Source: Amphiscolops sp. MND2022
Lineage: Eukaryota
Assembly: GCA_964187785.1 (NCBI GenBank)
Contig: OZ076409.1
Coordinates: 64,482,001-64,542,000, forward strand
DNA: 60,000 bases
Reading direction: 5' to 3'
A model generated the notes under the pieces. It was not told where the DNA came from. It did no database searches and was given only the letters and a program-made list of their open reading frames with translations. The position numbers and the translations under genes were made by a program. How positions within the stretch are numbered: position 1 is the stretch's first letter; the number at the start of each line of letters is the position of its first letter. This document shows positions 20,224 to 23,967 of the stretch, one piece after another.

Positions 20224-20573
20224 ATAATAATAATAATAATAATAATAATAATAATAATAATAATAATAATAATAATAATAATAATAATAATAATAATAAT
20301 AATAATAATAATAATAATAATAATAATAATAATAATAATAATAATAATAATAATAATAATAATAATAATAATAATAATAATAATAATAATAATAATAATA
20401 ATAATAATAATAATAATAATAATAATAATAATAATAATAATAATAATAATAATAATAATAATAATAATAATAATAATAATAATAATAATAATAATAATAA
20501 TAATAATAATAATAATAATAATAATAATAATAATAATAATAATAATAATAATAATAATAATAATAATAATAAT
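20224..20573. repeat. Pure (TAA)n microsatellite, ~116 units, left flank of the YR element
   Basis: 350 bp of uninterrupted ATA/TAA repeat. Confidence 0.99.
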
Positions 20574-20786
20574 TGTGGGAGGCTCTATGGTTTAAGCAAC
20601 GGCCAATTTTCTGGCCATAGAGTGTCCAAGCCCTGAATTCAGGTTAGCCATAGAGTGGTTTTACAAAAAGTCACATGTAGGAAACTTCCAGCATTACGGA
20701 AAGGTATTCACTCAAAAGCATTCCGGAAATGATTGCCGCATGCACTTGCGCAGCCTCGTCGCATAGGCGGAACTGGTAAATAACGA

Positions 20787-20900
20787 TGACGTAATTAGAC
20801 ACTCTCTGGCTAGTGACGTAATCACCATTCCCGCCAATACCAATACCTGTGTGACGTAATCAGACAACTGTAATTTATACAAAGCATCCGGATGACATAA
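20787..20900 (+). promoter_or_regulatory. Cluster of CRE/ATF-like TGACGTAAT sites upstream of the YR ORF (putative promoter)
   Basis: TGACGTAAT at 20787, 20814 and 20852 plus TGACATAA at 20893, 120-230 bp before ATG 21020. Confidence 0.5.
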
Positions 20901-21019
20901 CATTCATTTCAACACTGCATTCAATACGAATCATTGCGCTTGCTTCCAATTTCTTTTCAAAAATTTTAAATTTCCTATAATCACTCTTTGATCACCTTTT
21001 GGTTACATATAGACACGTA

Positions 21020-23266
21020 ATGGCTAGAGTACTTAGATCCGGTAGAAGAATTAAAAATGCTTCAGAAAAAGACTTCGAACAATCAGAATTGCCAGCATCT
21101 AGTCCAGAAAACTTAAATTTAGACTCGAGTTTCGGTTTACCAACACCAGGGCCTCTTACACAGGCTATAATAGACGATTTAGCTGGATCACAGTCCATCA
21201 TGCCAGAGCTCGACGAAATCGTGGAAAATGATTTTCTCCTGTTTTCCCCTAAAAAGACAGACAATTCCCCCTTTGAAGCCACCCATAGTCATGACGAAAT
21301 ACCCCCCGAAGTGTCTGAGACCGAACAAGGGCCGTCAACGATACCGGTCGAGCCAAAAACAGTGAAACGCGGAGTCAAACCAAAACAATCTGGTGAAATT
21401 CAGTGTCCTATCTGTCCAAAAAAAGTCAAATTCCTTCGTCAGCATTTAGTAAAGAGCCACAAATGGACCGGTGTCCACCTACGTTTCATTTTGAGTGTGT
21501 TTTCAACTAAAAATGCCAAAAGTCCCGTGTACGAATGCGCAGAATGTGTATACCGATTCACTCATCGTCAGCGACATTTGAGTCAATTCCCTCAACATTC
21601 AGTCAAAAACATCACCCGAGACAATTGCAATACATTTCCAGCCGAAATCATCAAATACATGAAAGAAAAAGGTGTCCTATCCGAGAGGGGCGGCGAATTG
21701 CTAAACAAATATCGCGATTATTGCATTGAAAAAATGAAACGACCACTTGCAAATTTCCAATTCGACGCAATTGCAAAGTTTTTCAGAGGCACACACAGCA
21801 TGAAAAGACCTGAACTAGTTGGCAAATGTCTTGATGATTTGAAAAAAGATCGCCAATATACTTTCAGCTCAGTACGAAAAATTTGTTTTGACATCAAACA
21901 GTTCATAAAGTGGATGAATGCCGGCTATCAAAAATCTTATCGAATAAACAAGGTCAGTTTTGACGACTCGATCAATTTGTGGCTCAGTGAGACTTCTAAG
22001 GACTGCCTTAAAGAACAGTCAAAGCGAAAACAGGAACGATTTGCACAAATTCCCACCATGGAATCGCTTTGTGAGATCCAAGACAAGGTGGAAAATTTCA
22101 TTGAAAACAAATTAGAATTAGACTCGCCATGGCATACATTGACGGTATTCGAAAAATTGTCGCTGGTATTATTCCAGATTCACTCACGAGCCAATTGCCG
22201 TGTTGGTATTTTGTTGTCTTTTACGACCGAACAACTTGACGCATATGAACCAGGGACCTTTATTCGCTCTAATGACCATAAAACCGGAAGTTTATTCACC
22301 AACTACGCCTATATAACAGCTTTTGAAAAGAAAGTTTTGCAAGAACTTCACAGCGAATACGAAGAAAAATTTGGTATCAAACCGACAACAATTTTTCCCG
22401 GCCACGATGATAATGAATTCACGTCGCAATCGGCCACAATCAGCCGTCTAATGAAAAATTTATTTGGCAAAAAAGACGAAAAATTCAACCCGAATTCATG
22501 CAGAAAAGTTTGGGAGACTTTTTATGAGAAAAACAAGCAAAAAATTCCGGCAAATCTCCGCAAAATATTCGAGGCTAATTCGGCACACTCTGAAAAGACG
22601 CGTGAGAAACACTATGTAGTGCCCCCAACAGATATGGAGCTACAAAACCTATTCGATGCCACAAATGATATCCGGGTTCAATTTCGAAAAAAACGCGCCG
22701 AAAAACCTTCAGAAATAACTTTGACAGTTCCCAGTACTGCTTCTGAGGAAGCTGCTGACACTACTGAAGATGAGGATGGGCCTCAAGATGAATTAATTGC
22801 TTGTTCGTCAAAAAGTTTGTCCAAAAATGTTCAAGTGAAAACTGGTCAAAAAAGTGAAAAACGCAAAAAAGTCAAAAAAGTCTCAAAAAAGAATGAAAAT
22901 AGCGAATCCGAAACAGACGACGACTCTGAAAGCGACGGTGATGGTAACGACAAAGAATTTCTACCCCCGCGAAATGCAAAAGTGGTCAAAATTGAAGATA
23001 CAAACATCAAAACAAGAATGAAAAATGAGGAATTGTATGATGAAATAGCCAGAAAACTTTTGAAATTCAGTAACCGAAAGTCTTTCCCGTTAGAAAAAGA
23101 GTATAAAAGAGCTTGTCGAATGGTGGCTTCAAAGAGAGCAAAGCTGTCGAAAGGCAACGTAAAAGACATTGTAAACGAATTGAAATTAAATGAGGAAGAT
23201 ACTGCGTTTGTTTTCAAAAAAGTTTATTGTAAGATGGTTAACGTTTACGCTACTGTAAAATTTTAG
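21020..23266 (+). CDS. Tyrosine recombinase with two N-terminal C2H2-like zinc fingers (748 aa from the first ATG)
   Basis: Longest ORF in the window, intronless. Numbering on the supplied 755-aa ORF: CPIC-x9-H-x4-H (C136), CAEC-x9-H-x6-H (C180), core-binding-like helix YTFSSVRKICFDIKQFIKWM, YR catalytic order R401 (NCRVG), K428 (HKTG), N499-x-x-R502, H530, Y539 (AHSEKTREKHY); acidic/lysine-rich tail. Confidence 0.85.
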   Translation: MARVLRSGRRIKNASEKDFEQSELPASSPENLNLDSSFGLPTPGPLTQAIIDDLAGSQSIMPELDEIVENDFLLFSPKKTDNSPFEATHSHDEIPPEVSETEQGPSTIPVEPKTVKRGVKPKQSGEIQCPICPKKVKFLRQHLVKSHKWTGVHLRFILSVFSTKNAKSPVYECAECVYRFTHRQRHLSQFPQHSVKNITRDNCNTFPAEIIKYMKEKGVLSERGGELLNKYRDYCIEKMKRPLANFQFDAIAKFFRGTHSMKRPELVGKCLDDLKKDRQYTFSSVRKICFDIKQFIKWMNAGYQKSYRINKVSFDDSINLWLSETSKDCLKEQSKRKQERFAQIPTMESLCEIQDKVENFIENKLELDSPWHTLTVFEKLSLVLFQIHSRANCRVGILLSFTTEQLDAYEPGTFIRSNDHKTGSLFTNYAYITAFEKKVLQELHSEYEEKFGIKPTTIFPGHDDNEFTSQSATISRLMKNLFGKKDEKFNPNSCRKVWETFYEKNKQKIPANLRKIFEANSAHSEKTREKHYVVPPTDMELQNLFDATNDIRVQFRKKRAEKPSEITLTVPSTASEEAADTTEDEDGPQDELIACSSKSLSKNVQVKTGQKSEKRKKVKKVSKKNENSESETDDDSESDGDGNDKEFLPPRNAKVVKIEDTNIKTRMKNEELYDEIARKLLKFSNRKSFPLEKEYKRACRMVASKRAKLSKGNVKDIVNELKLNEEDTAFVFKKVYCKMVNVYATVKF

Positions 23267-23901
23267 TCTCTACATAGATAATGAGTGACCCTTTTACTGC
23301 TGGTAATTACTGGATAGTTTTGAATTGCCTCAATCAGAGTTTTCAGTTACTTTGTTGAATTGAAATTTGAGCTGCCGAAATCTCTTAAACCACCACGTGT
23401 CTATGTGTAACCAAATTTATAACAAAGAGTGTCTAATAGTAACTAGATTGACAATGAACGTCTAATAGTTATTTTAGTGCAAGCGGTGTAAAACGCCAGT
23501 AACACTGCTACAGTGCGTGTATAGACTGAGAACAACTTCTGATCATTCATAAAATGATTGGCCAATGAGAAATGAGACCACACTTGAATTACGTCACACA
23601 TTACGATTCGCATCTGATACTCTCGCTGGATGACCATAGAGAGTCGTATAATCCCGAAATAGAAGCTGAAAATGTTTTGGGACCTGAAAACCATTCTAAT
23701 CTGAAATGAGACACTTGGAATTATTTGCAATTGTAATCTTATCACCACAGAGAATGTTTTCCAACCATTTGATTGTCCTGAAAAAGTTTTGAAGAGTTTT
23801 TTGAGAAGTTTGAATTTTTGAGGTTGGCCATAGAGAGTCTGGGTATGACATAAAAAGTCCTATTATTAACGGGCTTTTAGCCATAGAGAGTACTATAATA
23901 C

Positions 23902-23967
23902 TAATAATAATAATAATAATAATAATAATAATAATAATAATAATAATAATAATAATAATAATAATAA
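23902..23967. repeat. (TAA)n microsatellite, 22 units, right flank of the YR element
   Basis: 66 bp pure TAA repeat in the same orientation as the left array. Confidence 0.99.

Follow-up and report, generated by a model that had tools for sequence, protein, structure and literature searches.

In the Crypton groups CryptonF, CryptonS, CryptonA and CryptonI, a tyrosine recombinase (YR) is the sole enzyme, a short terminal sequence is shared with the target and a circular intermediate has been proposed (Kojima and Jurka 2011, PMC3212892). A further group, CryptonV, listed in the tables of PMC5753468 and PMC4455052, inserts specifically in microsatellites (PMC8869645, citing Kapitonov and Jurka 2012), and CryptonF of Chlamydomonas is active, with a terminal motif that matches its target and with clean excision (PMC9977147). 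The window analysed here, meaning the whole 60-kb stretch of contig OZ076409.1 of Amphiscolops sp. MND2022, contains an element of related kind in a (TAA)n microsatellite. This element, termed family A, is a microsatellite-targeting zinc-finger YR transposon, a variant of a kind that is known but has hardly been described. It very probably represents an autonomous and very recently active DNA transposon of the Crypton type, the circle junction of which would recombine with an att-like target.

With the four first-named groups the element shares the YR as sole enzyme and a short sequence common to terminus and target, and a circular intermediate is proposed for it as well. With CryptonV it shares, in a comparison made by description only, the insertion in microsatellites. 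CryptonV had already been named as the nearest parallel in an earlier reading made from the letters of the window (the sequence-only reading), and the citing paper PMC8869645 backs that choice. Some differences were found as well. CryptonF, CryptonS, CryptonA and CryptonI are described in PMC3212892 without terminal inverted repeats, whereas the element has imperfect 21-bp inverted ends and six 8-bp motifs; for CryptonA and CryptonI the same text gives neither a C-terminal domain nor terminal repeats, while both are present here. CryptonF has a C-terminal GCR1_C domain (PMC3212892), whereas the element combines N-terminal zinc fingers with a helical C-terminal domain. GCR1_C was found in none of 57 aligned members at an expect value (E) of up to 0.01 and not in the query at E of up to 1, and DUF3504 gave no Pfam match in the 57 aligned members. 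The half-site geometry and the opposite orientation of sister families, both given below, were not found described in the accessible literature.

Copies of the element and their target sites

The window holds one ATG-started open reading frame (ORF) of at least 150 amino acids, which is intronless, 748 amino acids long and encodes the recombinase (Table 1). As in Cryptons, the YR was the only enzyme found, with no reverse transcriptase (RT), DDE transposase or long terminal repeat, and the one long ORF lies in a dispersed multicopy unit with sharp ends. No second long ORF was found inside the unit, hence the RT-RNaseH with split or inverted terminal repeats of DIRS, Ngaro and VIPER elements was not seen. 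On both sides the unit is bounded by pure (TAA)n arrays, at 20224-20573 (116.7 units, 100%) and 23895-23967 (24.3 units, 97%), which are the only period-3 arrays among the 18 rows given by Tandem Repeats Finder (TRF) for the window. The sequence-only reading had described a single intronless ORF, the same lack of other enzymes and LTRs, and a unit of about 3.3 kb between the only long microsatellites of the window. All of this held, except that the limits of the unit had to be corrected to those in Table 1, most of the two tracts being host target.

The genome assembly comprises 1.07 Gb in 1,929 contigs, at least 13 of them chromosome-scale, and its repeat content together with the Atlas taxa given below points to an animal host. 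A copy-matching unit of 3,321 bp (20574-23894) matched it end to end at 20 places with 99.5-100% identity, as counted from 40 scored out of 102 candidates. Fifteen full-length copies, that of the window included, showed no difference, three showed one, one showed two and one showed 16. The identical copies are spread over eight chromosome-scale contigs and one small contig, and their flanks differ. Since 15 copies are identical over 3,321 bp, the family is young, as had been claimed, and family A has been mobile recently. It is a multicopy mobile family and not a single-copy domesticated gene, the case in which the sequence-only reading would have failed. The exact 21-letter left-end motif occurs 30 times genome-wide, and the flank was inspected at all 30.

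The copies of a second subfamily share 98.0-99.3% identity with one another and 92-93% with the first subfamily. More distant intact ORFs, found among 60 scored of 1,560 candidates, include family B (57% amino-acid identity), another at about 50% and family C (42%). The sister families have the same size and layout as family A. Family C (L077, G000:C8:61949870-61953700) outnumbers family A, with many intact ORFs and 73 exact right ends genome-wide. Head-to-tail pairs were found at L001/L029 and L019/L030 (G000:C1100), so that the arrangement is present twice on one small contig. In each pair a complete copy precedes an internally deleted one, in which positions 1-1295 are joined to 2145-3321 via a short filler. 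The deleted copy (L029, L030) is a candidate non-autonomous derivative.

Family A prefers (TAA)n as its target. At 17 of 18 independent young sites at least seven TAA units were present at the left end, all on the strand of the ORF, while no tract of this length, (TAA)7+, was found in 155,894 bases of control DNA, which consisted of the rest of the window and of 32 loci that had been selected without regard to the element. In this count L001 and L019 were taken as one, having the same flank, and the two internally deleted tandem copies were left out. Random flanks around the other copies, which would have spoken against the sequence-only reading, were thus not observed. The 82 bp left of the window tract occur at 39 other places among the matches listed, with 81-100% identity. 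Thirteen of these paralogues were fetched: in twelve the element is absent and the TAA tail has about 4-26 units, and one carries family C. The target therefore predates the insertion. TAA-tailed repeats are common in the genome and adjoin several copies; they look like 3' ends of long interspersed nuclear elements (LINEs), a label based on ORF fragments judged by eye and on one weak Pfam endonuclease match (E 0.005) in one of four fragments.

The window tract, which adds up to about 138 units, greatly exceeds the tails without element in length. At the three LINE-like tails that carry the element (window, L006 and L017) the left tracts measure 116, 75 and 38 units, against about 4-26 without it. 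The great length of the window tract could reflect either a preference for long tracts or expansion after insertion. Left tracts of 13-15 units are frequent in young copies (6/19) and occur at both tandem junctions as well. Among older copies a long tract was found at just three of nine left ends, in comparison with the 17/18 of the young sites (Fisher p 0.0017; L026, which has no left end, was dropped). Older copies thus mostly lie outside long tracts, which suggests either a later loss of copies from such tracts, through excision or deletion between repeats, or a shift in specificity.

Families A, B and C accumulate in shared tracts (L004, L007, L010, L015, L083). Family C lies in the opposite orientation in the same tracts, with TTA following 69 of its 73 exact right ends when three bases were tested. 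At L010 (G000:C3:10053774-10060094) family B, then family A and then an inverted family C stand in one tract, about 18 TAA units apart. Host fragments in the left flank of L008 and at 445-1525 of L007 are targets or neighbours of two copies; by eye they resemble Polinton-type genes, and a Pfam search with one of their ORFs gave no match.

End structure and recombinase

The 8-bp motif CCATAGAG occurs six times in the window, each time in the element ends, where 0.63 occurrences were expected; none of 100 shuffles reached six. The ends form an imperfect 21-bp inverted repeat that includes one exact copy of the motif on each side, and the four further copies lie inside. When the ends are joined, 32 bp separate the outermost inverted motifs, divided into 13 + 6 + 13. 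Such a junction fits the general rule for YR sites, in which inverted sequences of 11-13 bp surround a spacer of 6-8 bp (PMC3212892). The end structure, like the short TAA sites described next, had been overlooked in the sequence-only reading. The motif copy at 20583-20590, read on the plus strand, contains TATGG 13 bp inside the end, and this pentamer is terminal in many CryptonS elements (PMC3212892); the correspondence may be a coincidence.

The division of the junction could be set with the help of seven copies that are located in short AT-rich sites, some with just two to three TAA units. Three of them, belonging to two subfamilies (L003, L022 and L025), are inserted at the same base of one host repeat. 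All 29 fetched paralogues of the L003 host repeat (of 39 listed) are without the element, and in most of them a single TAATAAT-like motif is uninterrupted. Two others, L020 and L023, share one base of a tandem host, the adjacent unit of which provides an empty site. Comparison of filled and empty sites gave a fixed junction with three TAA units. Cryptons share 4-6 bp between terminus and target, and here TAAT stands at either junction and a single time in the empty site (L003, L020, L022 and L023), L021 being an exception. Beyond it, ATAAT or a one-base variant lies ten bases before the shared TAAT in 6/7 short sites, and ATTAT follows one base after it in all five that have a right end. In families B (two copies, both ends) and C (L077) the 8-bp motif also stands 13 bp from the repeat. 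The junction sequence itself is observed, and the 6-bp spacer would follow from this spacing. The integration into TAA repeats claimed by the sequence-only reading holds as a preference, but rather than the microsatellite itself the target would be a short, degenerate, att-like motif, with which (TAA)n complies at every third base.

The encoded protein consists of two C2H2-like fingers, a YR fold and a helical C-terminal domain. The finger residues (aa 129-147 and 173-193) are visible across the aligned relatives, and most of this region was modelled with a predicted local distance difference test (pLDDT) value of 77-97. Its database matches were weak (ROS/MUCR, ZBTB7A and GAGA fingers, E 0.015-0.09). 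The catalytic residues of a YR follow in order, R394, K421, N492-x-x-R495, H523 and Y532, as the sequence-only reading had stated. An alignment of 34 distant relatives shows no variation in the corresponding H-K or in the K that follows the second R, and the catalytic R, R, H and Y are conserved to at least 90%; the common motif can be written R...HKTG...NSxRKxW...H-x8-Y. These residues were assigned by motif order and conservation, and Y532, which would be the catalytic tyrosine, adjoins a stretch of low confidence in the model.

Searches of Pfam and of PDB sequences with the query alone gave no integrase match, and the Pfam family Phage_integrase was matched by just 4/57 relatives and PHROG integrase 216 by 3/57. 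The assignment of the YR fold is therefore based on structure comparison and not on Pfam results for the query itself. An AlphaFold2 model made from the 57-row alignment (mean pLDDT 76.5) was folded at about 120-560 and 666-745. Foldseek against the PDB placed XerA, lambda Int and Cre in the top rows (best E 0.002, none below 0.001), and in an unbiased search of 48,161 chains the top eight rows were all YRs. By VIA-align the model was superposed on XerH 5jjv (Z 11.4, root-mean-square deviation (rmsd) 5.0, 266 aligned residues), on Cre 7rhz (Z 10.8, rmsd 4.5, 263 aligned) and on XerA (Z 10.9), the three alignments spanning 243-266 residues. The fold, for which the sequence-only reading had asked a check, is thereby shown.

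Xer, Cre, lambda Int and the Tn1549/Tn916 integrases share this two-domain fold with the element (Z 9.6-11.4), and the sites of Cre and Xer share the 13+6+13 layout. The repeated flanking motifs resemble the arm-type sites of YR integrases, and Tn916-family integrases tolerate spacer mismatch, as the element appears to do. In contrast, sequence identity to these bacterial and phage enzymes is 9-14%, HxxR is replaced by NxxR, and eukaryotic zinc fingers take the place of the arm-binding domain of bacterial integrases. The fingers probably bind the 8-bp end motifs as arm-type sites.

The C-terminal domain, when folded alone, gave no clear structural match, the best being Z 7.0 to unrelated helical bundles. 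A Myb-like identity, proposed by one Atlas row (PF00249 in 40% of members), was unsupported for the same reason. In comparison with an intact copy of the 92% subfamily, the ratio of nonsynonymous to synonymous substitution rates (dN/dS) was 0.26 overall, with 0.105 for the fingers, 0.12 for the YR, 0.10 for the C-terminal domain and 0.56 for an acidic linker. The protein, including its YR, is under purifying selection.

Table 1. Positions of the element, its parts and its host sequences in the window
Feature	Position	Strand	Basis
Element proper, family A	20570-23907	+	3,338 bp including one 6-bp spacer; ends refined from filled and empty sites
ORF, zinc-finger tyrosine recombinase	21020-23266	+	Single, intronless, 748 aa
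Two C2H2-like zinc fingers	21404-21598	+	C129, C132, H142, H147; C173, C176, H186, H193
YR core-binding (SAM-like) and catalytic domains, aa ~219-556	21674-22687	+	Structure match, catalytic residues
Four-helix C-terminal domain, aa ~666-745	23015-23254	+	Conserved; pLDDT 88.8 folded alone
Left 13-bp half-site, putative core-type recombinase site	20570-20582	+	13+6+13 spacing; TAA count from empty sites
Right 13-bp half-site	23889-23901	+	Imperfect inverted repeat of left half-site, 6/13
6-bp spacer (TAA)2, element-borne, putative strand-exchange region	23902-23907	+	At right junction in 5/5 short-site copies
Outermost left copy of 8-bp motif CCATAGAG, inverted	20583-20590	-	Motif count
Two further left copies of 8-bp motif	20615-20622, 20648-20655	+	Motif count
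Three right copies of 8-bp motif	23634-23641, 23828-23835, 23881-23888	+	Motif count
Host (TAA)n target tract, left part	20224-20569	+	Tail of repeat at 20142-20223
Host (TAA)n target tract, right part	23908-23967	+	TRF array
Dispersed LINE-like repeat, 82-bp 3' end, its (TAA)n tail being the target	20142-20223	+	Other genomic matches

Within the element a 42-nt inverted repeat (20982-21023 and 23390-23431, 79% complementary) tightly flanks the ORF. Words of the type TGACGT/ACGTAAT are clustered at 20787-20860, within the untranslated part on the left, and their inverted counterparts lie on the right, at 23588-23605; we take them to be possible promoter elements, similar to the cAMP response element. 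The rest of the window contains tandem arrays of period 172 (15124-15808), 62 (34678-34821) and 124 (43389-43717) and many dispersed non-coding repeats, and is without another long ORF.

Proposed mechanism and alternative explanations

In the proposed mechanism the recombinase would excise or copy the element as a circle in which both ends are joined. The circle junction would constitute an att-like site, composed of the 8-bp motif, a 13-bp half-site, the 6-bp (TAA)2 spacer, the second 13-bp half-site and the inverted 8-bp motif, and would recombine with host DNA that reads ATAAT-N2-[N3-TAA]-WAATTAT. If it has about seven or more units, a (TAA)n tract would fit this target at every third base, each time with a single mismatch. 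Because such tracts fit in every register, microsatellites, often the tails of LINE-like repeats, would receive most insertions, and the spacer would set the orientation. A circle that carries a long TAA tract and so seeds microsatellites was rejected as a general rule, as L003, L020, L022 and L023 received a fixed three units. The hosts of L004 and L008 have paralogues of 75-80% identity without a long tract, so that tract-seeding may apply at some sites.

Several points weigh against this mechanism or limit its reach. The symmetry of the half-sites is weak (6-7 of 13 positions), and the 13+6+13 division was set by empty sites for family A, the number of repeat units in families B and C being assumed. 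The canonical histidine of HxxR is replaced by N492 (S or T in some relatives). The predicted circle junction had no match in the assembly, which would not normally hold episomes. At the window locus no allelic empty site was found, its right flank being single-copy. Older copies stand mostly outside microsatellites, which means that the targeting is not absolute. Finally, L021 was inserted without full spacer homology, which is needed in a mechanism like that of Cre. Its crossover lies between positions 5 and 7, in agreement with a host paralogue of 72% identity that is without TAAT there. Judged from L021 and from the junction bases given next, full spacer homology is dispensable.

This last case also bears on a refinement of the mechanism, namely that only one strand is exchanged, at the right edge of the spacer, and that the resulting Holliday junction is resolved by replication, which would also let the copy number rise. 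Reactions of this type are those of integrons and of CTX phage. The left junction keeps the host bases at spacer positions 1-3 in 7/7 short sites, the right junction bears the (TAA)2 of the element in 5/5, and only positions 4-6 are shared (6/7); the crossover of L021 is likewise in keeping with a single exchange. Furthermore, the copy number of CryptonF rose despite clean excision (PMC9977147). The seven insertions, however, fall in four host sites, one of them without a close empty paralogue, and identical sequences would arise if mismatch repair were biased or the overlap region were shorter. The refinement is therefore put forward tentatively.

It is improbable that the element is a cut-down endogenous virus, i.e. 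the integrase module of a large nimavirus-like DNA virus that targets simple repeats. The idea draws on the telomere-repeat-associated YRs of endogenous nimaviruses, among them the Majaniviral ones, which combine C2H2, SAM-like and YR domains and insert specifically in repeats (PMC10871703). The targets of these YRs are (TAACC)n or 28S rDNA, and the virus genomes to which they belong are large, with hundreds of kb where a size is given (PMC10871703). The element, in contrast, measures 3.3 kb, has one gene, targets (TAA)n and has the host repeat on both sides in 20 copies. No viral gene, nimaviral core genes included, accompanies its single ORF, on which ground the element was rejected as a virus, and the uniform size and layout of the sister families point the same way. 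Two queries of IMG/VR confirmed no relative (0/3 and 0/52 candidate stretches), and the matches to viral structures are phage integrases and VLF-1 at 9-14% identity.

It is very improbable that the unit spreads passively, with the YR as a bystander, when (TAA)n tracts recombine in the host or undergo gene conversion. Both flanks consist of the same repeat and would be a substrate for homology-driven repair, all the more as some tracts are very long (116 units), but precise insertions are also found at sites with two to three TAA units, the orientation within the same tracts is family-specific, the YR is under purifying selection and the end motifs are kept in three families. Equally low is the chance that the identity of the copies results from assembly or polishing and that the family is older than it appears. 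The near-duplicates L001 and L019 on one small contig could suggest this, but the assembly retains copies with 1, 2 and 16 differences as well as the diverged second subfamily, and the flanks differ between chromosomes. Least probable of all is a retroposed passenger copied in trans by the TAA-tailed LINE-like elements that lie beside several copies, since 20 of the 30 exact left ends belong to near-identical full-length copies, the repeat stands on both sides, filled and empty sites differ by no variable target duplication, and family C ends in TTA instead of TAA.

Relatives and meaning of the family

A HMMER search of 1.84 billion representatives returned 110 relatives at E of up to 0.001, and among 20 clusters looked up there was none with a functional name or with a source in NCBI or UniRef. 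These results suggest that the lineage is distinct from the fish and cnidarian families, which are well annotated. Of ten distant relatives examined for their contigs, six are located on short ones (2.5-3.8 kb), which would be expected from assemblies that are interrupted by the bounding repeats. One metagenome contig (L082, one of 167 candidate stretches) encodes, at 1-3291, a relative with 24% identity over 296 aa, in which fingers and the C-terminal domain are joined by a SET domain at the N-terminus (E 2.7e-14). Its gene is apparently interrupted by an intron (about 1127-1222), and some 430 bp past the stop codon the contig ends in (TAG)17. A SET domain was present in three of ten relatives scanned (L082, P0034 and P0163). 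A JGI scan with P0034 confirmed none of 597 candidates, and a wider profile search for named relatives recovered only its own first sequence.

The nearest Atlas clusters (0.93-0.97) are eukaryotic, most commonly from Mollusca, Chordata and Cnidaria, and mostly without a common Pfam family, while the Starship-type DUF3435 clusters scored lower (0.90-0.91). These taxa would fit an animal Crypton group. The tree computed here included 48 YR cores from the 57 rows, nine shorter than 150 aa having been dropped, and all of them are unnamed relatives with no labelled reference. On balance, though with little assurance, a labelled tree is expected to place the element in or next to CryptonV. No description of the lineage was found in the literature searched, the Repbase Reports and most subscription journals being outside its scope, and within that literature the microsatellite-targeted CryptonV is mentioned by name in just three papers.

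A more far-reaching joint claim is possible but doubtful. The elements would form an undescribed animal lineage of zinc-finger YRs separate from CryptonV, the members of which retuned a phage-like att site (arm motifs and a 13+6+13 core), each to a trinucleotide microsatellite and strand (TAA, TTA, TAG), and which use a single homology-dependent strand exchange; copies would be lost again from long tracts, and some branches would carry a SET histone-methyltransferase domain. If this were true, family A would provide a eukaryotic integrase that is ready for use on (TAA)n.

A 2026 review states that experimental proof of how Cryptons transpose is still lacking (PMC13565253). The family supplies what such an experiment needs, namely an intronless ORF in many identical copies, exact ends and a target rule derived from filled and empty sites. 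Natural variants of specificity are on offer as well, in the opposite orientation within the same tract and in the different trinucleotide of a distant relative. The family would reveal in what way a simple repeat is recognised by a eukaryotic recombinase, whether inserted copies are excised later and whether microsatellites are lengthened or seeded by such elements. For gene insertion, too, a recombinase able to integrate into (TAA)n without a free double-strand break would be of interest. The chief value of the family is that Crypton transposition and repeat targeting become directly testable.

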